This document shows, in pieces, positions 16,501 to 57,695 of a stretch of DNA of 64,000 nucleotides. This DNA is from an uncultured virus (IMG/VR IMGVR_UViG_3300048836_000122) (lineage: Duplodnaviria; Heunggongvirae; Uroviricota; Caudoviricetes): the IMG/VR virus record IMGVR_UViG_3300048836_000122, one strand, 5' to 3'. Position 1 is the stretch's first letter. Every line of letters begins with the position of its first letter. The position numbers and the translations under genes were made by a program. The notes below the pieces were generated by a model. That model did no database searches. It saw only the letters and a program-made list of their open reading frames with translations, and was not told the DNA's origin.

Positions 16501-19500
16501 CTGCAATGGCATCTGGCGACTTCATGGCACAAATCAATGCCGGAGAGATAACGTTTGAGCGAGGCCAGGAGATAGCGGATAGCATGGGATTGGAGAAAGA
16601 GTTTGATGCAGCTATTTTGGCAGCCCGGGAGCAGATGGCGAAGGATTATGCAACGGAAGCCGAGACGGAAGCCGAGACGGAAGCGGAGACGGAAGCGGAA
16701 GCCGAGACCCAAGCCGAGACGGAAGCGGAAGCCGAGACCCAAGCCGAGACGGAAACTGAGACCGAAACAGAGGCTGCAACCGAAACTGATGCAGAAGTTG
16801 AGACGGCTGAGACAAAAGTTGAGACAAAAGTTGAGACAGAACTTGAGCGAATCGATCAAGAGATAAAGGACTACTACAAGCAAGTAGATGCACTGCGCAG
16901 TAACACCGATCCTGCAAAGCGGGAGCAAGTACAATCGGAAATAGCAGCACTTCAAGAAAAGAAGGCAGCGAATACAAAGCGCCGGGCAGAAATCCTCAAG
17001 GCGCAAGCGGATATGAAGATGCAGAAGATTGAGGCCGTCACAGAGGCTACAACGGATGCGAAGGACGCAGCGGAGAAAAATGAAACACCAAACTTTAATG
17101 ATGTCAAAAATGAACAAGGAAAAAAAACCATACGAAGATTATCGGAAGAAAGTGAACGAGGAAGGAGCGAAAGCGGTGAAGCTAATGCAATCGCAACCAT
17201 TATCGTTAGCCGAATCCACAGAGATGTTCAAACGCAACAAGGAGTTAGCAATCCAAATGCGTATGGAAAGATCAAAGAATTAGAAGAAAGTGCGCTGCGA
17301 GATTACGCAAATAAAAATGGACTAATAATTCCCACACCAGAAACTGAAATAGTTTCGGATGGTAATGAGAGCGACATCTACATAACAGGAGATAACGTCA
17401 CAAAAGTCACTACTGTAAATAATTACAATAGTTGGTTAGAGTTATTTGATAGTATAGCAATCCACAATGCGGAAAACCCAAACACGCAATATACCATTAA
17501 GGGTTTCGCTGAAAACAAAGAGGGGATGTTTTCGATAGTGGTTGAGCAGAAAATGATTCATGGTAATCCAGCTAAACTCGATGTGATTCACGCAGACCTT
17601 CTAAGTAAAGGGTACGAACTATCGGGGGCGTATGGAGACGGACGGTATATTCATAAAGATAAGAATATAGTTCTTGAGGATATAAAAGAAGACAATGTTC
17701 TTGTAGATAGCAATGGAAACTTATTCTATATTGATACAGACTATTACCCCTATGACGCTCAGAGGGGGGGTGAGTTGATTGTAGATTATGCCGACATTGC
17801 GCAAGAGTCATCAAGTAAATCCACCGACTACCGGGTGCCAATCACGGGAATAGCTGTAAAGGAGGATGTATTTCAAAACAGAGACGGAGCAGATGGCAAG
17901 CCATTGACTTTGGACGACATGATCAACAACCCAGAAAAGGCGGGGCGAGCATTTGTTCGGGTAGATCGTATGGCTAAAAACTGGTCTGATGCGAAGCAAG
18001 ACCCCATTCATATATGGAGAGATGTTGAAGGACAATTGGGACCAAAGAACCAAGCCTATGTATTATCCGGGCACCATCGTCTTGCCGCAGCAACCAAAGC
18101 TGGGCGCACTGATGTGTTGGTTAGAGACCGTACAGAAGACTTCGGAACAGACTATGCCGCCGCAGCAGAGTTTGCGAAAGTAGAGGCTAACACGTTGTCC
18201 GAGGCAGAAACTGGATTAGAGAGATCTAAGGTGTATCGCAAGATGCGAGCGGATGGGAAATCCAAGTCAGAAATCAAAGCACTTGCGGCTGAGATAGAGG
18301 GCAGTAATGCAGCAAGGATATTAAAGTGGAGCAATCTTAACCCGGAAGGAAATCTTCTCAAAGACATGGCCAAGGTCAAAGATGAAGATGGAATCACGAA
18401 TATGGAGAAGCTGGCTGCATGGATTGGAGCGGCCCGGGACCGGGTGCCAATGAGTGACATCCAGGAAAATCAGTTATATGCATGGGCTACGGAAAACTTC
18501 AAGAAGTATTCCAATGAAGATCATTTTGTAGCGAATGTTCGGGAGGCTTTTGAGAATGCCGATACACCATTGAAGTTAAAATACAAGGAGCAAGAAGTTA
18601 CTGGCTCGCAGAAGCTAAAAGAACTCAAGGAAGAATCAGCCAGGCTAATGAGTGAGCTGGGGGATTTGTCAAGCCGGTTAATTGACCCAACAAACGAAGG
18701 GTATCTAAAACCGGACTCACCGACCTACCAAGAAGACCTTACCAGGCTGACTGAACTCCAAGCGCAAAAGCAAAAAGAAGTACAGGCCATTAATGCTCGG
18801 ATATACGAACTAAGCAAAAAGCCAAAAGAAGAATCAGGGCAGTCAGAATTGTTTAGTGTAGGCGAAAAGACTGCAAAAACAAAGCAAGCCAAGGGTGAAA
18901 TGCTATCTGAATTCCTCAAAGGAAAAGGCGTTAATATTCGAGTAGCAAAATCAGCCAAGGACTGGAATGCTATGTTAAATAGCGTAGCAAGTGATTCGGA
19001 AGTATTATTTAGTATCCTTGATGAAATAGATTTATTCACAGGAGACGTAGAAGCATCGAAAGCCTTCATAGATAAAGTATTTTCCACGATAAGCAAAGAA
19101 GATGGTAAGACAGCCTTCAAGAAAATGGCAATCAAATACCATCCAGACAAAGGCGGTGCGCTCGAAGTCATGCAACATCTTGTAGCAACGTATGACAAGT
19201 TCAAGGCCGGAGAGCCAATAAACAGACAGTCCAAAGATTGGGCGCAGGAGCAGCGACAATGGCAGGAATCTACTCGGAGTAGAGAAGAAGCCAACCGTGC
19301 AAAAGAGCAAGCCAAGCGCCAACAGCGAGAGTCACAGGAAAGGGCCCAGCGAGAGCAAGCCCGTAAAGCCCAGGAAGAAGCGGAGCGCAAAGCACGGGAA
19401 GAAGTAGAAAGGATCCTTCGAGAAATGAAAGAGGAGGGCGAAGCATTGCAAGCGGAAATCGATGCAGACAGAGCGAGATCGGCAGCCAACATGGATCAGT

Positions 19501-22500
19501 TGATCAAAGAACTGAACAAGGGTAAAAAACCGTGGTGGAGATTCCAATATAACCAAGGGCAGATCGCAGGATTTGTCAAAGACGGTGTAATGTTCCTGAA
19601 CCCGGCTACATTAAACACCAAGACTGTTCTCCATGAAAACCAGCATATATGGCAGCAAGCTGTAAAAGATGCGGCAAGAAACGGTGATGCAGATGCCCAA
19701 GCGATCATGCAAAAGCGCCAGGAGTTGTTTGGCAAAATGGCCGACAGCACCATGGCAGGCCGTCCACCCGTTGCAGAACTATCAAATGCGGTTTACAAGC
19801 AAAAAACAGGCGAATCGAAAGATGCATGGAGAAACCGGCTAATTGACGAGATCGAAGCCTACATGACCAGCGAAGCTATGCAAGGCAGGTTAGATGCTTT
19901 AGAGAAAAAGAACCCAAGTCTATTCCAACAAGTGAAAGACTTCATTGCAGCATTGAATGAGTGGTTATCAGGACTTATCGGACTAAAAGGCCAGGATGTA
20001 CTGAACATGACCATGGATGAGTACATTGATGCAGCAGGGGCCAGCGCACTGAAAGGAGAATTTAATTCACAAAAAAAATCAACAAATGAAAAATTCAACA
20101 GACAAGAATGGGAAATCCTTAGTGAAGGAAATGGAATCCTACGACTCATCCAAGATGACCTTGGATTATATGAAGGAAAGTATTCAGAAACGGATGTCTT
20201 TAATAAGCTCAGGGCAAAGTATCAAGACCAAGGAATAGTATTGGACAATATTGACACAAGATTAGGTGCAGAAATAGGCAACGGAACTGAATCTTTAATA
20301 TGGGGTAACCCTGAGAACAAATCAGTTATAAAGGCGATGTCATACGACATGGAGGGTGGAATCGCAAACTTGATAGACAAGATTGTAATTCATAATTCCG
20401 TATTCCCAGAAACAAAAATAAGTTTACTTGGGATAGGGAATTTATCCGACGGGACCAATGTATTTATAGTCGAGCAGCCATTTGTCGATTACAATAACGA
20501 TGTTGTAATGAATAGCGATGATATTGTGGACTTTATGAAGTCAAAAGGTTTTGATAAAATCACAAATGACAAATACCCTGTATTCTCAAATGGCAGATAT
20601 GAATTAAAAGACTTACATGAAGGGAATATAGGAATAACAAAGGCGGGAAATATTGGGGTGATAGATTTTTTTGCGGATATAGTTAGGGAGGCTGAAACGG
20701 GAGGCGAGACGCTGTTTGTTGAGGAAAGCCAGGTAAGTTCCGGGGGTGAGCAAGAAGCACAAGCCGTAGTCGATCAGGTGTCCAAAGCATTTCCGAACAT
20801 CGCCGTAGTAACGGATGGCGCAGAAGTCGCCAAAGCAAAAGTTGCAGCCGGAGTGGAGGGCGCTCTTGGATTTGTGTATCAGGGTAAAGTGTTTATCGAT
20901 ATGAAAATCGCAAGGCCCGACACGCCAATACACGAATTTGGCCATATATGGGGTCTGTGGGCAAAGATGAATGATAACGCACACTACCAAAAAGGATTGC
21001 AGTTAGTCGAGGGTAGTGTTTACGAAGCCAGGGTCCGTGAGTCTGGAAAATACGAAGGACTAAGCAAAGAAGAAATCCTTGACGAAGCCTTAATGATGGC
21101 TATTGGAGAGCGAGGTGCAGAAATAACCAAGGGAGGATTTAAGCAATGGCTTAAAGAACTTTGGGACAGCGTGAAGGCTCTGTTCATGGGCAAGCCGGAC
21201 ATCGAGAACATGACCTTGGAACAGTACGTAGATGCTGTTGCAACACAGTTACTTGATGGCACACCGATAAGCAATGTAACATCTGAACAGATTGCAAAGG
21301 TCCAGGAGCGAACCAAGCCAATGTTCTTTGAAGAAAAGAGCGCAATGGAACTTGGGTCAATGGTAGGGAATACAGTAATTGCCAGGCAGCTTGAAGAATC
21401 CGGACGAAGTGGTGCAGAAATTGAAGCCATTACTGGATGGCACAAAGGACCGGATGGCAAGTGGCGGGTATTTGTACCTCAATCCTCCAATGTTTCAAAA
21501 GGAGAAACGCTGGGTCAGATGATGGATATTCCTCACTTGTACAAGTTGTATCCAGAGGCGAAAGACCTACCTATTAAGATAGTAGATCATACTGACTTTA
21601 CAGCAGCTTATAATTTTGATGGACACATTGAAGTAAGCAGGGCTGCAATGGAAAGTCCGTCACTCGCATCGCATTTGATACATGAGGCTCAACACTTTGT
21701 GCAACATCAAGAAGGATTAATCAATCCGGACAATGCCGCAGACCTGACCAATGCAGAGCAAGTTATGTGGAATGCTATCGGCGGTTTCCCTGATGCATGG
21801 AGAGGTTGGAGCGATGGCATGATCAGGACCGGATTGGAAAACATGGTAAATGACCTGGCAGCTAAAAGGTACACAAAGTCCATGGTCGATGGGAAAACCT
21901 ACACTCATGCAGATGTAAGGGGATTGTTCCATATTCCCATTGAAGTTGATGCAAATGGTAATTTCCGAGAGATTAGTCAAGAGCTGTTCGATGCAGCCAC
22001 CGAATATTCACAAGACAGAAAACCGTATGAAGGACAAGAACAAAATGTTGCTGACAGAGTTGCGCAAGCCAAAGAACGGTACGAAAAAGCGCTCAAAGCA
22101 GAAACCAAAATATCCAATTTTTCCGGAGGTACTAAGTCAAGAGGACGAACCACAGGCCATATATCGCAAACGGTAACGACCAACCCAATAATAACCACCT
22201 TACTGTCAATGTACACCGGTGACAAATCCAAGGGATATGTTTCTCAGTACACAGAACAGCAAGCAGAAGCGGCGGCCAACCAAATTGAACTCTACCAGTC
22301 CATGGAAAACATGGGAGTTGATCCGGCAGAGGTATGGTGGATTCGCAGTAAAATGGAAGCCAAATCAACTAATGTCGAAGCGCAAAGTATTTGGGAGCCA
22401 ACAGGCGCATACTTAGAGTCGGTAAAGGTATTTGCAAATGAATACAAAGCACGGACAGCCGATATAGATCCAGTACTGCAGAAGAAATTAATGGATCACA

Positions 22501-25451
22501 TTCAAATCGCAAGAACGAATGGCGTAAACACGCTTCCCCGGTATTTGGAAGTATATGGGCTAAAAAACACCCAAGAGGTAGGTATTGCCTGGGGATTGGT
22601 GCAGAAAGCCATGAAAGCAAACGACAGTCCTTATTGGGGGCAAAATATGCTGTCATGGAGAGAGCAAATAGAAAAGACCCACTTTGACGATAAGATTGCT
22701 ATAAAGTCATGGCTTAATGCAGCCCGGGACGAGATGGGAATTGATACATCCCAAACATTTGCCGACCAAGAACTATTTAAGTCAAGAGCGGAAGCCCAAG
22801 CAGCCCGTGTTTCTGAAAGCATCATAGGTGAGACGAGAGGCAGCTTCTTCGGCAACGAAACAAGAATGGCCGAACTTACATTCGACAAAACCAGTGTAGC
22901 TGGCCGGGCAAAGCAAGATGGTATATCCATGAACGATCTTGGCACACTTGCGGTGGCAGATCACGCCTTCAGTAGAAATGAGCGTGTTGCGGAAATCATT
23001 CAAAAGAACCAGGATGCGTATGTAGATAAATTAAACGATGCCCTTGATCTTGCAATTTCTCAGAAAAATGCAGAAAAAGCACAGTTCATCCGAGATATAA
23101 TCGAAGAAGTATTAAATAACAACTACACGCATGAACTGTGGACTAAATACAAGAGTTTGGCGGCGACAAGCGAAGTCGTGGTGGTTCAAGATGGATCCGG
23201 AATATCCAATGAAGATGCACAGGCCATAATTGATAGCTTCCAGGCAAAGGGAGTCTTAGATAAGATGCGAGCCTATAACAAGGAAATCAGAGACAAACTA
23301 ATCACCGGCAGAGTCCAGATGTTATTTGACAACGGAATTATTTCCAAAGAGTCTTATGATGCACTTATGAATGGTACCCGGGATGGATACAATTCTGTAT
23401 TGAAAGACTATGTTCCTTTGACTGTGGATGATGAAGTCTTTGGAATAAACGAGGAGGGCGAAGCGAACTACTCCGGAACAGGAATACATTCGCTGGTGGG
23501 AACCGGCAAGTATGGTCTTGACAAACGCCACAATCCGATTGCAACACTTCTGAATCAATATGCTGCTTCGGTAAAACTGGTCCAACGGAACAATTTTGCA
23601 AGAGACTTTGCAAAAAATGCCAAAGATGCAGCGGAGGCTGCCGAGCAGCAAGGCAAAAACTCATATTACAAATTCAACACAGATAAGACAAACGATAGCG
23701 CAGGAACAGTACGTGCAGATGGCACGATAGTAATCGGTCGGGAGAAGATCAAGGAAAACAGTATTGTATATTTTGAGAATGGCGTAGAACACTACATTAC
23801 ATTCCCCATGGTTATGAGGCATGGCAAAAAAGTTCCCAACCCGGTCGTGCAAGCATTTGGCGCATTACCTCAGATGGCATTAAACATGGATCATCCATTT
23901 TGGAAAGGGTGGAATGCTGTGACGAACCTCAAACGAGCCATGTACACACAGTACAATTTCTGGTTTGGTGCCAACAACTTCATGCGAGACAATCAGGCGA
24001 AGTGGGCAAATATCCCAACGCTCAGTAAAATCAACTTTGGAGATGTCATAATAAATGAACTAAAGTACGGCACCGCAGTACGAGGTGTACTTGGGATTAT
24101 GGCAGGAAAGAAAATAGACCCGGTCACAAGCGCCGCCATGCAGCGAATGGAGGAGAATGGCGCAATGATGTCATGGATGGCTGCTGGAAAGATTGGCAAG
24201 GACGTTGTGGCATATCAGAAACTATTGGATGCATTAGAAAAAGGTGGTCCGGATAAGTTCACACCCTGGAACATCATGCAAAAAGGCCTCAACTTAATAG
24301 GAGCGTTCAACGATGCAATGGAAATGGGCACCAGGGTTGCCACATTTATTGCAGCAGAAAAAGCAGGGGCCACAACCAAAGAAGCTGCATGGTTGGCTAA
24401 AAACATCACGATCAACTTTGAGAAAAAGGGATCCTTGAGTCGGCAAGTAGAGCCAGCGTATCTGTTTTATTCAGTAGCATTCCAAGGCGCATATTTAGGC
24501 GGTAAAGCACTGACCAATAAACGTGCATGGAAGTTCTTGGGCACAGCGGCATTTGTTTCAATGTTCTTCCGATCAATGTTCCACATGGATGATGATGAAG
24601 AAAAACTTACAAAATACATTCTATCTGGCCAAGGTGATAGAAAAACAATTATATCAATGCCAGGCATGGAAACAGCCTTTACGATTCCAAAACCTTACGG
24701 ACCGGTTAGGATCATGCAAGCCCTTGGGGAAGGGGTGGCCGATGTAGCCTTTGGTATAAAGCCGTGGCAACATGCAGCATTAGAAGTTGCCGGTGAGTCC
24801 TATGCAGCGCTGTTCCCTGTTATGGGTGAGGCAGCCAATCCATTGAGTGCAATTATGCCGACACACGCCAAGCCATTTGCGGAAATATTAATGGATATGG
24901 CATGGTACGGCAAGCCAATTAAATCAGAGTACCCTGGTAAACCGGAGAAAGAAGTAGAGGGCGGTGGATGGCGCAGAAGCCAACACTACAATGCAACGAC
25001 AGCACCATGGGCAGTTGATTTGGCTCAAGCCATTGAGAAGAATACCCGATTTGGTGGTGGAGAGCAGGGTCTTGACATGCATCCAACTCAAATTCAATAT
25101 GCTATCAAACAGCACACAGGTGGAATGATGATGCAGAGCTGGGAGGCATTAATGGCCTTCGAGGATTTGCGGAACATCTTTGAAGAAGATGAAATGACCA
25201 AGGGCTTTGACATGACCAGGTTCCCGATAACGAAGTCATTTTGGCAAGACTTGAGCAATACAGATAAGCCTAAAATGTGGGCAGTTAGAAATGCTGTGGA
25301 TCGTCCAGCGACCACGCCGATGACGGTGAAGGAATACCGGGCAATCAGCAATGCATTAGAGGATTTGAACGAAAAAGGTTTCTTTACGAAAAGGGCCTAT
25401 TCAGAAACCAAGAGAATGCTTAGTAGGAAGTACCCGAACTTTGAGTGGTGA
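13560..25451 (+). CDS. giant polyvalent (probably ejected) protein: two kinase-like domains, ParB-like, J-domain-like, three HExxH motifs, LPD23- and LPD38-like regions
   Basis: 3963 aa. Kinase-like DIKEDNV..YID and DLHEGNI..VID; ParB-like VLSGHHRLAAA; KYHPDKGG; HENQH, HEFGH, HEAQH; TGWHKGPDGKWR; NITINFEKKG..IPKPY. Confidence 0.75.
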   Translation: MDKELYKWVTDRRLYSKSYEEFVQQYGGDNYKGLYQKLKANNIIDAESPEQFLKGFTGGKDPLRRDEDMGQVQQQEAPETPTPLIPQEEIPQEAPQETPQEAPQEGLPGSWDGMEVQELPVTPTPINPEWKPESPSGRGFVTSDYDPLVKPKKLRLSEQYDMVRSGTAPRPDGQRSVFDQAAYDAEQGIGTQVSMDLVNQITKGVDVDDQSKAEVADYLTKNPDVYARTAQRLMYEKAGSFGLSEESPVDFELPAIQRLDKRLRIRNDEKAIKEHNEFRQNNEAVNREFARIHAQAIKSNMQTKEEDAKILQERIGPERINEYYSAKQFDRLMTNVFEGESVKLEDEEDENVKESYNNAGSITDLEKFMEQYPESPLAKKAAFDVAMELDMDFDKAKQQQEATRKSLGNYKDVDEFSGVLESIDQDFHRHEKAMEKLGRLPQVAPRGMRDEIQNLKNAITQTKYASIASYNSAAALMTAAMKGTGDPNDPVYQKALAMNEEQRTRYLARHKNAAEKAAQFEVITQQIEDIDDIGDFTRWGINVSVQMVPIVSTIMAGGLLGAKVGSIGGPVGAAAGSFTGSFLVGWAAYGGDMYTAMLEGGVETDVAKNAAMKYSVLPSAVSILFPASVTYGMTRVLGREYLKNQVKKQLQAGLTGKAAQQSAQSAIQKETIKRGLKTVGIGIPSEGMAELIAQRMVIDGKMRTIPGFHMTRDEIRSEILNAGAAGLSWGGAMGAGAFVSQKATKAAFDDAKFGLEMDKYLNQLQEMDHWDPYMAKRIITQLKSQKKLNPEQKKILAHLQAAKDPNPQLSEALNEMNFWKDKVYHRGNKTNLSRFTELWNKQQKGDTTYAEDTELMMIAMNKGEVVAGEYQKLYTVTTKDGQEYTIIAHSVQHAEALTKDLDDVVSVVKREYNANDQADDVTQEPAYIRALKEVFNSDFVPQEFTAGEKTFKDATMDELLFSVEADLAQATEKTHRDELRAAMASGDFMAQINAGEITFERGQEIADSMGLEKEFDAAILAAREQMAKDYATEAETEAETEAETEAEAETQAETEAEAETQAETETETETEAATETDAEVETAETKVETKVETELERIDQEIKDYYKQVDALRSNTDPAKREQVQSEIAALQEKKAANTKRRAEILKAQADMKMQKIEAVTEATTDAKDAAEKNETPNFNDVKNEQGKKTIRRLSEESERGRSESGEANAIATIIVSRIHRDVQTQQGVSNPNAYGKIKELEESALRDYANKNGLIIPTPETEIVSDGNESDIYITGDNVTKVTTVNNYNSWLELFDSIAIHNAENPNTQYTIKGFAENKEGMFSIVVEQKMIHGNPAKLDVIHADLLSKGYELSGAYGDGRYIHKDKNIVLEDIKEDNVLVDSNGNLFYIDTDYYPYDAQRGGELIVDYADIAQESSSKSTDYRVPITGIAVKEDVFQNRDGADGKPLTLDDMINNPEKAGRAFVRVDRMAKNWSDAKQDPIHIWRDVEGQLGPKNQAYVLSGHHRLAAATKAGRTDVLVRDRTEDFGTDYAAAAEFAKVEANTLSEAETGLERSKVYRKMRADGKSKSEIKALAAEIEGSNAARILKWSNLNPEGNLLKDMAKVKDEDGITNMEKLAAWIGAARDRVPMSDIQENQLYAWATENFKKYSNEDHFVANVREAFENADTPLKLKYKEQEVTGSQKLKELKEESARLMSELGDLSSRLIDPTNEGYLKPDSPTYQEDLTRLTELQAQKQKEVQAINARIYELSKKPKEESGQSELFSVGEKTAKTKQAKGEMLSEFLKGKGVNIRVAKSAKDWNAMLNSVASDSEVLFSILDEIDLFTGDVEASKAFIDKVFSTISKEDGKTAFKKMAIKYHPDKGGALEVMQHLVATYDKFKAGEPINRQSKDWAQEQRQWQESTRSREEANRAKEQAKRQQRESQERAQREQARKAQEEAERKAREEVERILREMKEEGEALQAEIDADRARSAANMDQLIKELNKGKKPWWRFQYNQGQIAGFVKDGVMFLNPATLNTKTVLHENQHIWQQAVKDAARNGDADAQAIMQKRQELFGKMADSTMAGRPPVAELSNAVYKQKTGESKDAWRNRLIDEIEAYMTSEAMQGRLDALEKKNPSLFQQVKDFIAALNEWLSGLIGLKGQDVLNMTMDEYIDAAGASALKGEFNSQKKSTNEKFNRQEWEILSEGNGILRLIQDDLGLYEGKYSETDVFNKLRAKYQDQGIVLDNIDTRLGAEIGNGTESLIWGNPENKSVIKAMSYDMEGGIANLIDKIVIHNSVFPETKISLLGIGNLSDGTNVFIVEQPFVDYNNDVVMNSDDIVDFMKSKGFDKITNDKYPVFSNGRYELKDLHEGNIGITKAGNIGVIDFFADIVREAETGGETLFVEESQVSSGGEQEAQAVVDQVSKAFPNIAVVTDGAEVAKAKVAAGVEGALGFVYQGKVFIDMKIARPDTPIHEFGHIWGLWAKMNDNAHYQKGLQLVEGSVYEARVRESGKYEGLSKEEILDEALMMAIGERGAEITKGGFKQWLKELWDSVKALFMGKPDIENMTLEQYVDAVATQLLDGTPISNVTSEQIAKVQERTKPMFFEEKSAMELGSMVGNTVIARQLEESGRSGAEIEAITGWHKGPDGKWRVFVPQSSNVSKGETLGQMMDIPHLYKLYPEAKDLPIKIVDHTDFTAAYNFDGHIEVSRAAMESPSLASHLIHEAQHFVQHQEGLINPDNAADLTNAEQVMWNAIGGFPDAWRGWSDGMIRTGLENMVNDLAAKRYTKSMVDGKTYTHADVRGLFHIPIEVDANGNFREISQELFDAATEYSQDRKPYEGQEQNVADRVAQAKERYEKALKAETKISNFSGGTKSRGRTTGHISQTVTTNPIITTLLSMYTGDKSKGYVSQYTEQQAEAAANQIELYQSMENMGVDPAEVWWIRSKMEAKSTNVEAQSIWEPTGAYLESVKVFANEYKARTADIDPVLQKKLMDHIQIARTNGVNTLPRYLEVYGLKNTQEVGIAWGLVQKAMKANDSPYWGQNMLSWREQIEKTHFDDKIAIKSWLNAARDEMGIDTSQTFADQELFKSRAEAQAARVSESIIGETRGSFFGNETRMAELTFDKTSVAGRAKQDGISMNDLGTLAVADHAFSRNERVAEIIQKNQDAYVDKLNDALDLAISQKNAEKAQFIRDIIEEVLNNNYTHELWTKYKSLAATSEVVVVQDGSGISNEDAQAIIDSFQAKGVLDKMRAYNKEIRDKLITGRVQMLFDNGIISKESYDALMNGTRDGYNSVLKDYVPLTVDDEVFGINEEGEANYSGTGIHSLVGTGKYGLDKRHNPIATLLNQYAASVKLVQRNNFARDFAKNAKDAAEAAEQQGKNSYYKFNTDKTNDSAGTVRADGTIVIGREKIKENSIVYFENGVEHYITFPMVMRHGKKVPNPVVQAFGALPQMALNMDHPFWKGWNAVTNLKRAMYTQYNFWFGANNFMRDNQAKWANIPTLSKINFGDVIINELKYGTAVRGVLGIMAGKKIDPVTSAAMQRMEENGAMMSWMAAGKIGKDVVAYQKLLDALEKGGPDKFTPWNIMQKGLNLIGAFNDAMEMGTRVATFIAAEKAGATTKEAAWLAKNITINFEKKGSLSRQVEPAYLFYSVAFQGAYLGGKALTNKRAWKFLGTAAFVSMFFRSMFHMDDDEEKLTKYILSGQGDRKTIISMPGMETAFTIPKPYGPVRIMQALGEGVADVAFGIKPWQHAALEVAGESYAALFPVMGEAANPLSAIMPTHAKPFAEILMDMAWYGKPIKSEYPGKPEKEVEGGGWRRSQHYNATTAPWAVDLAQAIEKNTRFGGGEQGLDMHPTQIQYAIKQHTGGMMMQSWEALMAFEDLRNIFEEDEMTKGFDMTRFPITKSFWQDLSNTDKPKMWAVRNAVDRPATTPMTVKEYRAISNALEDLNEKGFFTKRAYSETKRMLSRKYPNFEW
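16650..16840 (+). repeat. coding tandem repeats (ETEA/ETQA/ETKV) in the giant protein
   Basis: Repeated gccgagacggaa, gagacccaagcc and gttgagacaaaa units. Confidence 0.85.
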
Positions 25452-41770: not shown

Positions 41771-42274
41771 TTACAAAGTTTGATAAACGTTTTCAATTAC
41801 TTCATCAGTAAGTCCGATATACCTGCGAGTAGTTTTCTCGCTGTCATGGTTAAGAAGGTGAGAGGCTACGGTGATCCCGTGCTTTCTATAAACTTCCTTG
41901 GCAAAGGTCTTTCGCAGGAAGTGAGTGGACTGTTCAGGCAGTTTAAGTTTAGCCTGGATAGCCTTTATCCGGTGGTTAGCTCCTTGGATGGTTAGCCGTT
42001 GACCTGGCTTTCTTTTCGGATGCAAAATGTATCCATTTCCGGAGTGAGATTGGAGAATTTTCCGTAACTTGTGGTTCACGGTGATGATTGCTGTCTTGCC
42101 GGTTTTCTGTTCTTTGACAACAATCTTATCTTCGAAAATATCCTCCCACCGGAGATTGGACACATCGCTGAACCTCCTTCCGGTGTACAGCATAAGAGCG
42201 AATAAGAGCTGGTCTTGTCCATCGAGCATATCGAGGCATTGCTCGGCATGGTTAAAGTCTATGGGCGTGGTCAT
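41771..42274 (-). CDS. small tyrosine recombinase (catalytic domain only)
   Basis: YTGRRFSD (R), EQKTGK (K), THFLRKT (HxxR), LNH (H), TRRYIG (Y). Confidence 0.9.
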   Translation of the reverse strand: MTTPIDFNHAEQCLDMLDGQDQLLFALMLYTGRRFSDVSNLRWEDIFEDKIVVKEQKTGKTAIITVNHKLRKILQSHSGNGYILHPKRKPGQRLTIQGANHRIKAIQAKLKLPEQSTHFLRKTFAKEVYRKHGITVASHLLNHDSEKTTRRYIGLTDEVIENVYQTL

Positions 42275-51334: not shown

Positions 51335-51810
51335 TACGAAGCAATGAATATAGCTGTTATAGGTAGTATTTTGAGGTGGGGTTTCAGAATAATAAACTGG
51401 AATCACTTTAGAATAAAAGCCCATAATGGCAAACCGAGAATAAAGCGGATAATCAAATTGAAAGGATTTAGAACAGCGTTGATTGAAGAATATAACGGTA
51501 ATAGATGTACTTCACGATTTTACTGGCGTGTCGGCATTTGGTTAGGTGCTGTTATGTGCCGTTTATTTCATCCGATTGAAACGCTTGAAAACTGTTCATT
51601 TGTGGATAGTGTATCAGGTAAATCAGTAGGTAAATTTCGGTGCAAAAAATGTAATGCAGAATGCTAATGGTAAAAGAGATATTTTTAGGTGCTACGTTTA
51701 AATGGCACATAACGTATAGGTATATGGTTTGTGCCTTTTGAAAAACAAACCTTTGAATTATTAACCGACCCTTTTTCTTTTATTTTTTGAGCGAGGGCAA
51801 AAAACAAATT

Positions 51811-52164
51811 ATGAAACTAAAAACACGAATTAAACGAGCATTAGCAGGTTTTTTAAGAGAGGAATTACTGGAATATATTGGGTATAATCACCGAATACCT
51901 TATATGGGTTTGAATGACCGATTTAATGTTCAAAACCTGCCATTTGAAACTATGGTAATGGAAGTTGAAATACCTATTGAAATGGATAGTAGAATGGGGT
52001 ATGAAGACCCTACAAGACTTGAAAAGCATATTGAAGATTGTAAACGCAGATTTGCTGAACAGGTAATGGAACACATTCACGTTGATGCTCAAAACCTGAC
52101 GACAAGAGAGCATTTTATGAGACGAAGTGTTCGTTTTGTTTTACGTGTGCAGGGGAAAAAATAA
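51811..52164 (+). CDS. hypothetical protein nested in the loop of an attC-like hairpin
   Basis: ATG 51811; flanked by a perfect 18-bp inverted repeat at 51771 and 52156. Confidence 0.65.
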   Translation: MKLKTRIKRALAGFLREELLEYIGYNHRIPYMGLNDRFNVQNLPFETMVMEVEIPIEMDSRMGYEDPTRLEKHIEDCKRRFAEQVMEHIHVDAQNLTTREHFMRRSVRFVLRVQGKK

Positions 52165-52318
52165 AAGAAAAAGATTGAAAGCACGAAACTTTGATACAGC
52201 ACGGACTTTAGGCATAAACTATATACCGTGTTGTAGCATCGTTTTAATGTGCTACAACGGTAGGTAGCTAACCGAAGGCGGTGATTTAAAAACAGAAATA
52301 ATTAAATAACACAGAAGT

Positions 52319-52531
52319 ATGAATACAGAAGAAACTTTCAAAGAAAAACGACACCACCGCTTTTGGTTAGGTGCTGTTATGTGCCGTTTATTTCATCCGA
52401 TTGAAACGCTTGAAAACTGTTCATTTGTGGATAGTGTATCAGGTGAATCAGTTGGTAAATTTCGGTGCAAAAAGTGCAATGCAGAATACCTTGCTAATAG
52501 TAAAAGAGATATGTTTAGGTGCTACGTTTAA
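52319..52531 (+). CDS. cassette protein with Zn-ribbon (a degenerate duplicate lies at 51551-51713)
   Basis: CRLFH...CKKC; near-identical DNA at about 51537-51715 with a small frameshifting deletion. Confidence 0.6.
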   Translation: MNTEETFKEKRHHRFWLGAVMCRLFHPIETLENCSFVDSVSGESVGKFRCKKCNAEYLANSKRDMFRCYV

Positions 52532-52801
52532 ATGGCACATAACGTTGAGTGTAACCGCAGTAGGCACACTTGACAAACCCCGACAATAGGCACAGGCAGC
52601 GTTTGTAAAATGATGAACGAACAAATTTTAGAACGATTAAGAAAGGAATTTGCCTTTGTTGGTGATGAAAAAATATCAGGACATACGGCAATGAAGTTTC
52701 GGAGAAAGCCCGAAGGGATTTCTCCGAAACGGCATCTGGCTTGGCGATGCTGCCGAACACAAATGTTAATTAGAATTACAAAACTTTAAATTATAGATAA
52801 A

Positions 52802-53122
52802 ATGTCAAACGAAGAACAAAACGGCAATATTGCCAAACCCGTGTTATGCGATGATTTGCGTGGGCTTATTAAAGGCTCGTTTGGAATAGCAATGAACGCC
52901 AATGATTTTTTTAATTATGCGTGTGCTGATATGGTATTGATAGATTCACAAGATTTGGAATGGGTGCTTCCTATTTACAAAAAGTATAGTTGGAAAGGTG
53001 TAGATGCTTGTATGGCTTTTATAGCAAAGCAAATGCCGATAAAACCACACATTACAAAAGAGTTTGAAGAAGCGTATGCAGAAATTGAAAAAATCAACCC
53101 TAAAGTTTATTCGGAGTATTGA
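52802..53122 (+). CDS. cassette hypothetical protein
   Basis: Starts in the hairpin loop and reads through GTTATGCGA at 52843. Confidence 0.65.
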   Translation: MSNEEQNGNIAKPVLCDDLRGLIKGSFGIAMNANDFFNYACADMVLIDSQDLEWVLPIYKKYSWKGVDACMAFIAKQMPIKPHITKEFEEAYAEIEKINPKVYSEY

Positions 53123-53252
53123 GCGTGATAAGCAAATTTTCGCATAACGTTGAGTATATGGTGCGTAGCCGACACCTTAAACCTGGCTATTTAACACAAA
53201 TGTTTAATCGGCTATGCACTATATACAGTGTTAGCCATAGTACGGTATAATT

Positions 53253-53840
53253 ATGAAAATATTAGTTGCGTGTGAAGAATCACAAACAGTATGTAAAGCA
53301 TTAAGGGCAAAAGGTCACGAAGCTTATTCTTGTGATATAATTGAATGTTCTGGTGGCAAACCCGAATGGCACATCCAAGATGATGCTATAAAAGTGGCTT
53401 ATGACAAAAGTTACAATTGGGATATGATGATAGCACACCCACCGTGTACTCACTTGGCTGTAAGTGGTGCGAGATGGTTTAAAGAAGGTGTAAAGCCAAT
53501 CTCATTACAAATTGAAGCCGCAGAGTTTTTTATGAAATTGGTTAATGCTCCAATTGAAAAAATTGCAGTTGAAAATCCAATATGTGTAATGAGCACGAAA
53601 TACAGGAAGCCCGACCAAATTATTAACCCTTTTCAATTTGGGCATCCTGAGCAAAAGAAAACTTGTTTGTGGTTAAAGAATTTACCAAAACTAAAGGAAA
53701 CAAATAATGTTTATGATTACATGATGACCTTGCCTATTAAAGAGCGAACAAGAATACATTGGTTAGGTAGTGGTAAAAGTAAAGAGCGTTCAGTAACTTA
53801 CCAGGGGATTGCTGATGCTATTGCGGAACAATGGACGTAG
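53253..53840 (+). CDS. cassette-borne C5 DNA methyltransferase-like protein
   Basis: ILVACEES, SCDI, AHPPCT (catalytic PC), VENP, QFGH..KKTCLW. Confidence 0.75.
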   Translation: MKILVACEESQTVCKALRAKGHEAYSCDIIECSGGKPEWHIQDDAIKVAYDKSYNWDMMIAHPPCTHLAVSGARWFKEGVKPISLQIEAAEFFMKLVNAPIEKIAVENPICVMSTKYRKPDQIINPFQFGHPEQKKTCLWLKNLPKLKETNNVYDYMMTLPIKERTRIHWLGSGKSKERSVTYQGIADAIAEQWT

Positions 53841-54005
53841 TATTATGGCTAACGTTTCGCATATTGCCGAAGGTGGCAATTTCGGAGCAGAAAACTTGAA
53901 ACTTAAATAAATGTTTAACCGAAGCAAAAATGTTCACTTAACCACAGACCTGCCACTTTTGGCAATATGCTGTTATGTGCCGTTTTTCTTCACAAATTAA
54001 TAAAT

Positions 54006-54263
54006 ATGAACTGGAAAAGATACCGTTTAAAAACTTATGCTGTTAGCGACAACAGACCGTTAATCTTCAATCCTAAATATCCTTGGTGGTGTTCAGGTTA
54101 TGGTGAAGATGAAAAAGGCGAATACTCTGTAATAATTGCGTATTTACCAAAGGATGAAGATTTATTAAAGTATTGGGATGATGCTTTTGATGTGGAATTT
54201 ACAGAAGAAGAAAGCATAAGTTTTTCTGATAGATTTCCGAAACCGAGTTACTTCGTGTCTTAA
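54006..54263 (+). CDS. cassette hypothetical protein
   Basis: YPWWCSGY..YW..F.DRFPKP; stop lies just before GGCACATAAC. Confidence 0.65.
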   Translation: MNWKRYRLKTYAVSDNRPLIFNPKYPWWCSGYGEDEKGEYSVIIAYLPKDEDLLKYWDDAFDVEFTEEESISFSDRFPKPSYFVS

Positions 54264-54464
54264 AATGGCACATAACGTTTTGCGGCTTGGCGAAGGCTGC
54301 CTAACGATATTTTTAATATTCGCACGAATTTCATGGCAGCTTTTGCCAAACCGCTGTTATGTGCTTCAAGAATACAAGCAATGGTTAATTGATAAACGTC
54401 TGGTTAAGGAGGTTCAGTAGCCTTGCAGGTAACGTTTAGTATAAAAAACAATAAACTTTCGGAT

Positions 54465-54740
54465 ATGACAAACGATAATAAAAAACAAAAACTTTCGGAC
54501 AGCACGGACACCGCTATTGACGGTTATACATTGTTACCTGCCGTTTTTTGTCACAGGATTAGAGCAGGAAAGTATTATGTCAAAATTGGCGAACACGAAT
54601 ACGAAATTTACAATCACGGGTATTATCCACCTGATAAATGTATTTGGTGGGAAGCGACAAACTTGAAAACGAATGAAGCTGATTTTCACGAACACACCAA
54701 ATTTCAACTATTAGAAACTATGAAACGTGAACTGTCTTAA
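54465..54740 (+). CDS. cassette hypothetical protein
   Basis: ATG in the spacer, reads through GTTACCTGCC; stop just before GGCAGGTAAC. Confidence 0.6.
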   Translation: MTNDNKKQKLSDSTDTAIDGYTLLPAVFCHRIRAGKYYVKIGEHEYEIYNHGYYPPDKCIWWEATNLKTNEADFHEHTKFQLLETMKRELS

Positions 54741-54894
54741 AATGGCAGGTAACGGCTGACGCTATACGAAGGCAGGGGTTAAGATGCACTCCCTTTCAGC
54801 CTTGCATAAATGATAAAAGATGCACACCGCTCACTTTAGCAGTACGCCCCTGCTTTTGTATAGCGTATGTTATAGGGCGTTTTATTTTAATTGT

Positions 54895-55116
54895 ATGGAA
54901 TTTTACGGAAGTATCAGAATAAAAAAAGCTGCCACTTTACAAAGTTGGATTGATAAGGGATGGTATCAAAAAGAGATTGATAAGGGATATACATTTGCAC
55001 CTGCTTGTGGTAGATTTCGTATTGGCAAGTGCGAATGTTCAAGATGTCAAAGACCTAACGGTGGATGGGAGAAGAAAGCTGTTTTGGAGCGTAACGGTCT
55101 TTTAAATGCCCTATAA
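54895..55116 (+). CDS. cassette hypothetical Cys-rich protein
   Basis: CECSRC; the TAA stop lies inside GCCCTATAAC. Confidence 0.6.
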   Translation: MEFYGSIRIKKAATLQSWIDKGWYQKEIDKGYTFAPACGRFRIGKCECSRCQRPNGGWEKKAVLERNGLLNAL

Positions 55117-55168
55117 CTCCTATATGTATCAAACCCTCACAATTTATTATAAACCAAACAATTGCATT

Positions 55169-55393
55169 ATGAATATCGGAAAGTATGTACAACAGTATTC
55201 CGAAGACCTTCGGCTCAAGAATTACGCTGAGAATACCATCAGGAATTATGCCGCGCAGGTGGATTCCTTTCTTAGACATTTCCAGTCGGTGGCTACCAAA
55301 CCCAGCGAAATATCTGAGCGACAGATCAAAGCATGGTTGGCTAAGACAATTAATACGCGTAAACATCGCTTATCAGTATTGGAAAGGTGTTAA
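55169..55393 (+). pseudogene. truncated tyrosine integrase (N-terminal SAM-like domain only)
   Basis: EDLRLKNYAENTIRNYAAQVDSFLRHF..PSEISERQIKAWL matches integron-type/Xer-like integrase N-termini; stops after 74 aa with no catalytic residues. Confidence 0.75.
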
Positions 55394-55456: not shown

Positions 55457-55864
55457 ATGAAAGCAATACTAATTAGTATAATTTTCCTACCAATACTCGG
55501 ATATGGACAGATGATGGACGATTTTAGACGTTACATCCGGGCAGATACGGTGAAGTTTGACACTATAAGGTATTTAGAGGATATGGTTCGAGAGTCATGG
55601 TGTGATTCATCAGCAGATATAAGATATGATTTAGAGGATTTGATTATTATTGACAAGTGCGAAATAAGAGGCCATGTATGGACACCCCACTATGTTACTG
55701 ACTTAGTGTATTATCCAAACGAGGCAAGACTGGTTGATTCCGATAGCATGACAGTAATGATTTACCCTGCAAAATACTCGTTTGAGAAGTGTGTGAGGTG
55801 TGGGGAAATCAAAAAAACGAAGGAAAGTGATGAAATTCACAAATTACTTTGGAGGAAAAAGTAG
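55457..55864 (+). CDS. secreted hypothetical protein
   Basis: MKAILISIIFLPILGYG|Q signal; C..GH.W and CVRCG. Confidence 0.55.
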   Translation: MKAILISIIFLPILGYGQMMDDFRRYIRADTVKFDTIRYLEDMVRESWCDSSADIRYDLEDLIIIDKCEIRGHVWTPHYVTDLVYYPNEARLVDSDSMTVMIYPAKYSFEKCVRCGEIKKTKESDEIHKLLWRKK

Positions 55865-55914: not shown

Positions 55915-57111
55915 ATGATTAAGTCACACGTCATAAAACTACACCCCACAAAGGGGCAGGAGGCTTTCTTCCGAAAGTCCTCTGGCGTGTCACGTTTTGC
56001 CTACAACTGGGCTTTACAGCGATGGAAAGAGATTTACGAAGAAACAGGAAAGGGTACATCGGCTTATAGCCTGATTAAGGAGTTGAATAGTATAAAGCGA
56101 GAGGAGTTTCCATGGATGATGGAGGTTGGGAAGTGTGCGCCACAATATGCAATTCATAACTTGGAAAGTGCATTTAAGCGATTCTTCAAGAAAAACGCCA
56201 AGTACCCTGTATTCAAGAAGAAGGGTCGGAAAGATTCTTTTGTGGCGGTTGAGAATAAAGAGCAATTCAAGCAGTCTGGACTAAAATTATGGATACCAAG
56301 ATTGGGATGGGTGAGATGTGCGGAGGAGTTACGATTTAATGGGAAGGTAAATAACATGACGGTGAAGCGCATAGCAAATATGTGGTTTGCCGTGGTAAAC
56401 GTAGATACCCAGGTACAACCTACAGTATGTGAGAACCAAACTGTTGTAGGCGTGGACTTGGGTATTAAATATATGGCTGTGTGTAGCGATGGACGAGTAT
56501 TCGAGAACCCCAAATCTCTTTCTAAGAGATTAGAGGCGTTGCGGACAGCGCAGCGAAAGTTGAGCCGGAAGCAGAAAGGTTCCTCCAATTGGAAAAAGCA
56601 GGTAGCACGAGTTGGCAGGATTCACTACAAAGTGACTTGCGCTCGAAAGAATGCAATACACCAAGCAACGTCAGAGATAGTAAAATCGGCAGGCGTAATC
56701 GTATTGGAGGACTTAAATGTTAAGGGAATGGCCCGAAACAAAAAGTTGGCCAGAGCGGTTAGCGATGCAGGGATGGGTGAATTTCGCAGACAGATCGAGT
56801 ACAAAGCATCATGGGCCGGAGTAGAGGTAGTAATTGTAGATCGGTGGTTTCCATCATCTCAATTAGACCACAAGACCGGAGAGCGACACAGCATCACACT
56901 AAAAGACCGAATGATATATCATTCGGATGGAACAAGTACATGCCGGGACTTAAATGCGGCAATGAACTTAAAGAACTACTATACCGGGAAAGTCTCGGGA
57001 ATAAACGCCTCCGGAGTTGATGTAAGACCTGTTTTACAGGCAAGCGACGATGAACGAGGAATTGGATTTGTTAACAATAAAATCTTAAAACTTTGGCTAA
57101 GATCATCTTAA
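55915..57111 (+). CDS. tnpB: TnpB-family RNA-guided endonuclease, Zn finger degenerate
   Basis: SRFAYNWAL; RuvC motifs GVDLG, VLEDL and RDLNAA; CxxC pairs absent. Confidence 0.9.
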   Translation: MIKSHVIKLHPTKGQEAFFRKSSGVSRFAYNWALQRWKEIYEETGKGTSAYSLIKELNSIKREEFPWMMEVGKCAPQYAIHNLESAFKRFFKKNAKYPVFKKKGRKDSFVAVENKEQFKQSGLKLWIPRLGWVRCAEELRFNGKVNNMTVKRIANMWFAVVNVDTQVQPTVCENQTVVGVDLGIKYMAVCSDGRVFENPKSLSKRLEALRTAQRKLSRKQKGSSNWKKQVARVGRIHYKVTCARKNAIHQATSEIVKSAGVIVLEDLNVKGMARNKKLARAVSDAGMGEFRRQIEYKASWAGVEVVIVDRWFPSSQLDHKTGERHSITLKDRMIYHSDGTSTCRDLNAAMNLKNYYTGKVSGINASGVDVRPVLQASDDERGIGFVNNKILKLWLRSS

Positions 57112-57695
57112 ACGCAGGTCACGGAGGGATTACTTTAAAGAAAGGCTATGTAACGCCTGGGAAAAGAGGCCCACTTGGACACCGAGGACAAATCTTTGAA
57201 GGCATGAGCAACCGAGGCTTAGTACATGAGCTGGCGTATTTTCTTTCCTTAAAAGGCCATACAGTAGAAGTAATAAGTCACAGCACTCTTGATACATCAG
57301 TTGGATCAAGAGGTCGCTATGCCCAAGAAATCAAAGGAGACTTACTGTTGGACTTTCACTCGAATGCCATATCAGATGTAGAGTTCAGAGACTATACAGG
57401 CTTTGAACTATGGACAACCGAAGGAGAAACGCCAAGTGATCACTTTGCAAAGCACATAGCCAAGGGATTAAAATCATCCTATCCTCATGTAAGATGGCGG
57501 CATGGTCCGGGGATGGAGGACGACAAGGAAAAGAACTTTTCGTTAATTTACATGGCCGAAAAAGTCGGCACGAAAGCCGTCTTAGTAGAAACCTTGTTTA
57601 TGGACGGAGTTCAGGACTACAATTATTTGACGGACGCTATGTGGAGGGCGAAGTATGTAGAGAATTTTTGCAACATAATTCACAAATACCAATGA
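57093..57695 (+). CDS. N-acetylmuramoyl-L-alanine amidase (Amidase_3 endolysin)
   Basis: LNAGHGG, E, FHSNA, GFELW, VLVETLFMD. Confidence 0.85.
   Translation: MAKIILNAGHGGITLKKGYVTPGKRGPLGHRGQIFEGMSNRGLVHELAYFLSLKGHTVEVISHSTLDTSVGSRGRYAQEIKGDLLLDFHSNAISDVEFRDYTGFELWTTEGETPSDHFAKHIAKGLKSSYPHVRWRHGPGMEDDKEKNFSLIYMAEKVGTKAVLVETLFMDGVQDYNYLTDAMWRAKYVENFCNIIHKYQ

Follow-up and report, generated by a model that had tools for sequence, protein, structure and literature searches.

A probable, partly worn cassette array of an integron-like system in a Bacteroidota phage, and precise turnover of such arrays in isolates of Polaribacter phage Freya

We have examined a 64,000-nt stretch of DNA from an uncultured virus (IMG/VR record IMGVR_UViG_3300048836_000122, Caudoviricetes), here called the window, for which an original prediction had proposed a phage-borne, integron-like cassette array with an attI-like end and a truncated integrase. 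It is probable that window positions 51.35-55.4 kb are the partly worn cassette array of an integron-like system widespread in phages of Bacteroidota. We observed a family of hairpin sites with covarying stems, sharply bounded units whose own two ends pair with each other, a tyrosine recombinase at a set position beside the arrays and, in isolates of Polaribacter phage Freya, precise gain and loss of units. The system functions like an integron, yet it is not an IntI integron.

The nine pairs of GTT starts and AAC ends listed in the prediction are exact reverse complements of each other at the coordinates it gave, its tenth-listed end, TATGGCTAAC, is found at 53844-53853, and the three hairpins it named have the arms as it gave them. 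Words of GTT plus six nucleotides with a reverse complement no more than 700 nt away number 12 in the 64-kb window, nine of them within 51.5-55.1 kb, while the count averaged 3.3 over 100 first-order Markov simulations of the window and was never above 8. The conserved cassette start GTTANNNNSCGTTT is present in five copies, all inside the array region (0.37 expected), and the end motif family TTAAA(A)TGnnnnnTAAC (repeat family D3) also has five copies. The window hairpins have a common geometry of AAC, 5 nt, arm, loop, arm, 1-3 nt and GTT. When the whole window was searched with a custom covariance model, R1, seven sites were detected, all on the plus strand and only at 52.2-54.9 kb, namely 52249-52385 (92.8 bits), 52721-52852 (61.3), 53139-53239 (24.7), 53844-53981 (110.4), 54267-54365 (70.9), 54424-54542 (34.9) and 54744-54878 (88.6). 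Nothing comparable was found with the model elsewhere in the window, bar a remnant at 51.4-51.6 kb, and a search of Rfam with window positions 50.5-57.5 kb at E values up to 5 returned a single chance match to rox1.

The site family was defined by a pattern taken from the three best window hairpins, TAAC-N13-14-CGAAGG-N60-90-CTTTTG-N10-GTTA, which matches at least 129 stretches in IMG/VR. All listed IMG/VR matches are 123-128 nt long, though 114-145 nt were permitted, a uniformity that chance matches would not be expected to display. In species-representative genomes it also matches at least 124 stretches, nearly all of them from Bacteroidota (Flavobacteriales, Chitinophagales, Sphingobacteriales and Cytophagales, with a few metagenome-assembled genomes of other labels). 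Alignment A1 and model R1 were built from 70 diverse copies, in which compensatory changes occur at 12 of 18 stem pairs. Alignment cells of the stem are paired in 95.2% of cases compared to 71.2% in shuffled alignments, none of 500 shuffles reaching the observed value, and 44-52% when the partner strand is slid; the sites are thus defined by structure, as predicted. They have no match in Rfam. A profile search detected 273 sites in the first 131 sources, with densities of up to 9 per 10 kb, co-oriented in 122 of 123 loci and lying on the strand of the genes; with the model, scores are 71-110 bits on this sense strand and 19-22 bits on the antisense strand. The sites are approximately 90-140 nt long, with end stems of 10-15 bp and the motifs CGAAGG/CTTTTG and CGTTTT/AAAATG, and three G.T pairs are conserved on the sense strand, two in CGAAGG/CTTTTG (70 of 70 sequences) and one at end-stem position 11 (77%).

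Unit boundaries were located with 153 pairs of hairpins that come from different loci and are at least 85% identical. Similarity is lost immediately upstream of TAAC in 148 of the 153 and continues at least 10 nt downstream beyond GTTA in 88, and per-position identity, calculated for 146 pairs, falls from 1.00 within TAAC to 0.21-0.37 at positions -1 to -5 and is 0.78-0.94 at +4 to +12 after GTTA. The break upstream of TAAC combined with the continuation past GTTA indicates that the hairpin moves with the gene downstream of it and that the joint lies at TAAC. In 132 cassettes bounded by two sites, the eight cassette-start positions that follow GTTA form a mean of 5.0 Watson-Crick pairs with the end of the same cassette, with six or more in 73, compared to means of 2.9 across the hairpin to the start of the next cassette and 2.8 for random ends, 2.6% of which reach six. 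A cassette start therefore pairs with its own end and not with that of its neighbour. The unit consists of a spacer, stem A, loop X, stem A', GTTA-N6..., segment Y and ...N6'-TAAC. Cargo usually occupies segment Y; in window unit 51714-52258 it is carried in loop X and the own-end stem is empty, a layout also read in several Freya units. Loop cargo with an empty own-end stem accounts for two of the listed segments, 52230-52258 and 52696-52730, which have genuine end pairs but are empty cassette stems rather than the small cassettes they were taken for. The proposed layout stands as far as units bounded by AAC and GTT are concerned, but the hairpin travels with the downstream gene, the open reading frames (ORFs) run toward the attI-like site and cargo may sit in the loop.

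Units of the window recur in other genomes with the same boundaries. A 29-kb contig from a different metagenome contains window positions 54750-55117 without a single difference; its flanks are unlike on both sides, and an attI-like sequence (ATACAATATGTGAG) once more follows the copy. The match to a 7.4-kb metagenome contig spans exactly 53153-53853, comprising hairpin and methyltransferase, at 91% identity, and further, shorter metagenome contigs cover 52266-52545 and 53968 or 53992 to 54277. In the 642-kb phage LR756502.1, the hairpin of 54277-54354 is followed by a full cassette, GTTACCTGC...ORF...GCAGGTAAC, of which the window retains the last 77 nt (54357-54433, 97%), homology stopping exactly at the ...GGTAAC end. 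In other loci, similarity to window hairpins (77-96% identity) runs from TAAC to approximately 10-40 nt beyond GTTA without extending to the cargo.

A tblastn search found relatives of the recombinase in cultured phages of flavobacteria, one of which, Freya, provides natural variants of a single array that differ by nested sets of units directly upstream of the recombinase, the strongest evidence for the system. Ten isolates of Freya have been sequenced (43,978-48,920 bp), a range corresponding to the 44.0-48.9 kb given in the original description, which reports one integrase and in whose main text, in the portion available, the words cassette, indel and insertion are absent (PMC8776804). We compared seven isolates, Freya_1, 2, 5, 6, 8, 9 and 10, in which the distance from a fixed left anchor to the recombinase start is 40, 882, 1784, 2256, 4080, 4675 and 4982 nt, respectively. 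These differences in array length exactly equal the differences in genome length, the shared parts being 99.7-100% identical, and in every case the block that differs has ...AAC at its borders, with AAC as a 3-nt overlap. In Freya_1, TTGTTTACAAC is joined to ACCCCTATAAC... a few tens of nucleotides ahead of the recombinase ATG. The arrays of Freya_2, 5, 9 and 10 end at 863, 1765, 4656 and 4960 (Freya_10 array coordinates), each joined to the same ACCCC..., whereas Freya_8 lacks exactly 864-1765, an internal AAC-to-AAC deletion, and Freya_6 carries other cassettes beyond 1765. Thus, five variants involve the attI-like site proximal to the recombinase and one involves two internal sites, as attI x attC and attC x attC events would be expected to produce. 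Breakpoints at the cores, as had been proposed, are seen in these gains and losses in relatives and in the exact breaks of homology between contigs at TAAC. In the sister phage Danklef, the recombinase lacks its first third, being 5'-truncated, and no difference separates isolates 1 and 5 along the 7.2 kb of array (100% identity); the block common to Danklef and Freya ends at Freya junction 4656. An HNH gene lies directly 3' of the recombinase in both phages.

Hairpins and pairing ends could instead be elements acting at the RNA level, in processing, termination or translation control between early genes, with modular differences produced by homologous recombination as proposed for promoter early stem-loop (PeSL) motifs. 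Several features would suit such a role: all sites lie on the sense strand of the genes, ORF starts are often placed in the A-rich loop, the sense fold outscores the antisense fold, and transcription would turn the three conserved G.T pairs into G.U. Outside position 11, though, G.T pairs in the end stems (approximately 0.4 per 8) hardly exceed A.C (0.28), and similarity between contigs stops within 1-5 nt of TAAC with no decay inside the repeat. Further, the Freya junctions are not accounted for by homologous exchange within repeats, since they have only AAC in common and the sequences to either side are unlike. We consider this explanation improbable as a replacement for site-specific recombination, although the sites may have an RNA role alongside it.

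The genes next to the sites include a recurrent recombinase. Among 1438 ORFs from the 131 sources, three clusters recurred: DNA methyltransferases, at 35 loci (N6_N4_Mtase as well as C5 methylases); a cluster without annotation or Pfam family, at 11 loci; and a small tyrosine recombinase, at 8 loci. Since tblastn with the 74-aa recombinase fragment of the window against the first 131 sources returned only the fragment itself, a profile search was needed to find homologues. The profile detected nine IMG/VR loci with ORFs of 266-289 aa that have the catalytic residues R...HxxR...H...Y, are co-oriented with the array and always lie downstream of it, and nine genome loci (305-546 aa by stop-to-stop frame), also on the downstream side but on the opposite strand. 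The recombinase is on the TAAC side of the array in all 18 loci, and in most of eight IMG/VR loci an AT-rich motif resembling TATATATGTAA follows the last TAAC, a few tens of nucleotides before the recombinase ATG. In the window, the last TAAC (55114-55117) is followed by no hairpin, and 51 nt on, after TAAC-TCC-TATATGTATC, a 74-aa recombinase fragment begins that aligns to positions 1-62 of the array-recombinase hidden Markov model (HMM), for which the HMM search found no continuation in any frame. The attI-like end and the outward-pointing, truncated integrase of the prediction are thus matched by full-length homologues behind the same motif at the same end of arrays in the nine IMG/VR loci and in Freya. 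With its recombinase cut to 74 aa, the window array has probably stopped changing, unless it is served by a homologue in trans, which is also what had been anticipated.

The array recombinases are not typical integron integrases. With TIGR02249, the integron integrase family, six full-length array recombinases score 96-168 bits (cut-off 265), and the match is broken into two stretches, one to profile position ~171-180 and one from ~239, skipping ~58 positions (about 181-238) that we take to be the I2 helix region of IntI. Their best family is NF040815 (XerA), at 146-207 bits and under its cut-off of 220, and the nearest PDB relatives are the archaeal XerA structures 4A8E and 5HXY, followed by IntI4 (2A3V, in two stretches) and XerD. 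The array recombinases are therefore Xer/IntI-like but not IntI, and the missing IntI-specific insertion argues that the array is not an IntI integron; the integron-like cassette array of the prediction stands.

This bears directly on the proposal that the units are ordinary bacterial integron cassettes with attC sites, acquired as a cluster of attC sites lacking integron integrases (CALIN) and moved by a host IntI, as proposed for Polaribacter phage P12002L, which is less probable still than an RNA-level origin. The AAC/GTT cores, the hairpins and the cassette-specific ends are those expected of attC sites, and model R1 gives weak matches beside the P12002L methylase genes. Against this, the array recombinase is without the IntI-specific segment and has XerA proteins as its closest solved relatives, the orientation of the gene relative to the site is reversed, and the sites have conserved motifs of their own in a family confined to phages and genomes of Bacteroidota. 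Typical attC sites are also approximately half as long as the hairpin sites of this family. The available portion of the P12002L study provides evidence on both sides: the site P12002L_attC1 has the layout TAAC-5 nt-hairpin-GTTA with a TCGTTTTAATG loop, and one of the two P12002L sites recombined with IntI1 in Escherichia coli, but P12002L_attC1, the member of the array site family, is the site that failed with IntI1 (PMC9892861). Least probable of all is that another hairpin-recognising enzyme, either an IS200/IS605-type transposase with TnpB or the Freya HNH protein, moves the units, with the tyrosine recombinase as a bystander, since, although IS200/IS605 elements use subterminal hairpins and short cleavage motifs, a TnpB gene lies 0.8 kb downstream in the window and the HNH gene adjoins the Freya recombinase, no TnpB or Y1-transposase cluster recurs among the 1438 ORFs of 131 sources (TnpB being present in the window only) and the Freya hot spot is a few tens of nucleotides ahead of the recombinase start.

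Several observations weigh against an integron-like system served by the linked recombinase. The acting enzyme, single-stranded substrates, circular intermediates and mode of expression are inferred. Of the 65 IMG/VR loci in which 1 kb or more of downstream sequence is present, just 10 have the recombinase, the window fragment included, and most sites were found without it, though often in loci that are no more than short fragments. An ordinary lysogeny integrase that happens to lie beside the array is another possible identity for the recombinase, and in the accessible part of their paper Bartlau et al. read the Freya integrase as a sign of a temperate lifestyle (PMC8776804). Six stem pairs are invariant in the 70-copy alignment, and as TAAC, CGAAGG, CTTTTG and GTTA were preset by the search pattern, their invariance is partly by construction; the three sense-strand G.T pairs are equally compatible with an RNA structure. 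The Freya sites belong to a divergent subfamily that R1 scores weakly (22-28 bits), and the contrast between an intact recombinase with a variable array and a truncated one with an invariant array is drawn from one phage species each, with two Danklef isolates compared. When IMG/VR or genome loci with identities of 93% or more were searched for further natural indels, two came to light, in L010/L067 and L017/L051, which are not at TAAC, though they lie outside the arrays; the one examined closely involves a short direct repeat. Several window units are degenerate, and among the metagenome sequencing runs compared, as contigs only, none contained more than 9% of the window's words.

A mechanism consistent with the integron-like reading can be proposed. 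The mobile unit comprises a 5-nt spacer, an arm of stem A, loop X, the second arm, 1-3 nt, GTTA+N6(+CGTTTT), segment Y and (AAAATG+)N6'+TAAC, units being joined head to tail after TAAC. On circularisation, the stem formed by the unit's own ends (GTTA.../...TAAC) would stack on stem A to give a long imperfect palindrome centred on the exchange point, resembling a folded attC site. The ~270-aa Xer/XerA-like tyrosine recombinase would exchange strands at or beside AAC, inserting units at the attI-like site and deleting units between sites. As partner sites share only AAC, this is probably an exchange of one strand on folded single-stranded DNA. Expression of the cassette genes, which point toward the recombinase, would depend on read-through or start from the A-rich loops. 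The cargo, mostly DNA methyltransferases and small genes without assigned function, likely provides anti-restriction and accessory functions.

Integrons are the textbook platform for gene capture, tied to one integrase clade and to bacteria. We give about even chances to the broader interpretation that a second kind of integron has arisen from short Xer/XerA-like recombinases without the IntI insertion, phage-borne and active in nature today, as the Freya isolates from one bloom suggest, which recombines dumbbell-shaped single-stranded units between TAA and C, draws on a cassette pool shared by Bacteroidota phages of lakes, sludge, guts and sea and by their hosts, and restocks methyltransferases and counter-defence genes. 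If so, capture of cassettes as folded DNA does not require the IntI-specific domain, and phages of a major phylum possess a parallel gene-capture platform that uses another recombinase and larger sites and has its genes in inverted polarity. Such a platform would also provide a concrete explanation of how 'hyperplastic' accessory regions form in phage genomes and, with one window unit identical in the foreign 29-kb contig, a possible route for counter-defence genes between unrelated phages. Freya, with seven array states sequenced, is a ready experimental system.

The units of the window, all on the plus strand, are as follows from left to right. The left part of the array contains a duplicated cassette, half a hairpin and degenerate units. 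In the array as a whole, the units at 51.35-51.7, 52.54-52.73 and 54.43-54.54 kb are degraded. The degraded left end (51344-51550) has a GTTATAGG start at 51357, TAAC at 51495-51498 and a hairpin remnant with the right arm only (51534-51549); the covariance model gives a weak match here (51435-51560, 13.7 bits) and direct-repeat family D1 begins at 51532. Cassette copy A, GTTATGTGCC...GGCACATAAC (51551-51713), has a verified end pair and is a duplicate of 52376-52543, copy B, the two corresponding to repeats D2 and D5 at 96% identity, with a small deletion in copy A that shortens its ORF. The unit with loop cargo (51714-52258) has arms at 51719-51735 and 52211-52227, complementary at 15 of 17 positions by reading of the sequence, around an ORF of 117 aa (51811-52164), and is closed by the empty cassette stem GTTGTAGCA-TCGTTTTAATG-TGCTACAAC at 52230-52258, whose TCGTTTTAATG loop recurs in empty stems of loci L012, L080 and L058 and in the P12002L_attC1 oligonucleotide. 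An 18-nt perfect inverted repeat, CTTTTTCTTTTATTTTTT and AAAAAATAAAAGAAAAAG (51771-51788 and 52156-52173), flanks the loop-borne ORF. The unit with copy B (52259-52543, 92.8 bits) has arms at 52264-52283 and 52355-52374, GTTATGTGCC at 52376, GGCACATAAC ending at 52543 and an ORF of 70 aa (52319-52531) that starts inside the hairpin loop.

It is followed by a degenerate unit (52544-52730) with no clear first stem, ending in the empty stem GTTTCGGAGAAA...TTTCTCCGAAAC (52696-52730; pair I6), and a unit with a worn hairpin (52731-53148, 61.3 bits), in which CGATGC/ATATTG replaces CGAAGG/CTTTTG. The latter has arms at 52736-52755 and 52822-52841, ends GTTATGCGA (52843) and TCGCATAAC (53148) that form pair I15, and an ORF of 106 aa (52802-53122) that starts inside the loop. 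The methyltransferase unit (53149-53853, 24.7 bits) has a hairpin of a second subfamily, with arms at 53154-53171 and 53210-53227 and a 76% match to Cellulophaga phage phi18:3, and ends GTTAGCCATA (53230) and TATGGCTAAC (53853); its DNA methyltransferase (53253-53840) matches phrog_757 (E = 9e-64). The next unit (53854-54276, 110.4 bits) has arms at 53859-53878 and 53951-53970, GTTATGTGCC (53972)...GGCACATAAC (54276) and an ORF of 85 aa (54006-54263), and the short-loop unit (54277-54433, 70.9 bits) has arms at 54282-54301 and 54335-54354 and a 5'-truncated cassette in which GTTATGTGC is joined to TTCAAG...GCAGGTAAC. A unit with a degenerate hairpin (54434-54753, 34.9 bits) carries an ORF of 91 aa (54465-54740) and the verified end pair GTTACCTGCC (54533)...GGCAGGTAAC (54753). 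The last unit (54754-55117, 88.6 bits) has arms at 54759-54778 and 54847-54866, GTTATAGGGC (54869)...GCCCTATAAC (55117) and an ORF of 73 aa (54895-55116). The attI-like docking region, TCCTATATGTATCAAACCC... (55118-55168), separates it from the truncated recombinase (55169-55393), an N-terminal, core-binding SAM-like domain of 74 aa (Pfam PF13495, Phage_int_SAM_4, E = 2.7e-10). Many ORF start codons in the family sit within hairpin loops, and long loops (e.g. 53879-53950; alignment columns 36-115) contain three to four copies of a ACAAAnGTTnAA-like motif at ~20-nt spacing which, from their sequence, may serve to bind an accessory protein or act as promoter elements.

The truncated recombinase is followed by an unrelated ORF and, 0.5 kb on, by TnpB. 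The TnpB gene (OrfB_IS605; 55915-57111, plus strand) overlaps at its end the start of an endolysin ORF (Amidase_3; 57093-57695), and TnpB together with ORF 55457-55864 may be what replaced the 3' part of the recombinase. A lone ORF of 167 aa on the minus strand (41771-42274) is a tyrosine-recombinase catalytic domain (Phage_integrase, E = 3e-19) without an N-terminal domain. A recombinase split by a 13-kb inversion into 55169-55393 and this ORF was considered and rejected, as no frame supplies HMM positions 63-98, the two pieces have diverged to very different degrees and the breakpoints have no inverted 10-mers. In LR756502.1 (L001, reverse complement of 573434-585770, at ~5930-6400), a 70-nt segment that opens with the attI-like motif TACTTTGTATGTATGC and closes with ...GCGCATAAC is duplicated around one hairpin and cassette unit, and in Danklef_1 and Danklef_5 (L269 and L270) the array runs into the middle of the annotated 'integrase' gene, ...ACACACAAC being joined to GTGCG..., where a reverse-oriented ORF is located. 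The window itself is phage DNA, encoding virion proteins, a DNA polymerase exonuclease subunit, DnaB, GroEL/GroES, an endolysin and a crAss001_48-like protein. An ORF of 3963 aa (13560-25451, plus strand) lies beside ORFs of 1576 and 1229 aa that match virion proteins; this region and the crAss001_48-like gene suggest a large crAss-like or related Bacteroidota phage. Relatives sought through GroEL in IMG/VR gave 29 pattern matches, none of which was confirmed.

Comparison with known systems places the array closest to integrons. The pdif sites are 28-bp double-stranded XerC/XerD sites of alternating orientation served by the XerCD of the host. The dif modules of Acinetobacter plasmids to which they belong resemble the array in their accessory modules, short sites and Xer-type shuffling, according to the accessible parts of two reports (PMC6449649, PMC13141974). 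Unlike them, the array has co-oriented hairpin sites of 90-140 nt, cassette-specific covarying stems and a dedicated recombinase at the array end. Shuffling of PeSL cassettes is attributed to homologous recombination between repeats. In T4-like phages these cassettes likewise consist of small accessory genes with repeated stem-loops swapped between relatives, as far as the available portions of the papers describe them (PMC2839356, PMC4122927), but in the array the junctions have only AAC in common, the stems covary and there is a linked recombinase. The array also differs from IS200/IS605-TnpB elements in that neither a Y1 transposase nor TnpB is recurrently linked to the hairpins.

Our literature search for phage integron-like systems found nothing beyond the two-site CALIN with two methyltransferases that Qi et al. 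(2023) called in P12002L with HattCI/IntegronFinder, which shares with the array attC-like sites around methyltransferase genes in a phage of Flavobacteriia and the layout of P12002L_attC1 (PMC9892861). In the accessible part of that paper, the sites are treated as those of an integrase-less bacterial integron, with no site family, unit structure, linked recombinase or turnover among isolates described (PMC9892861). Like integrons, the system has arrays of single-gene cassettes, AAC/GTT cores, structure-defined covarying sites, own-end pairing and a docking site beside an outward-pointing tyrosine recombinase, where variants mainly arise in Freya. Unlike integrons, it has a Xer/XerA-like recombinase of ~270 aa, sites of ~90-140 nt with their own motifs and end stems of 10-15 bp, cargo in loops and Bacteroidota phages as carriers, and its hairpin is upstream of the gene, the ORFs pointing to the attI-like site and recombinase, which is the reverse of classical integrons. 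Thus, five traits of integrons are present, and the system departs from them at two defining points, the IntI insertion and the polarity of the genes.

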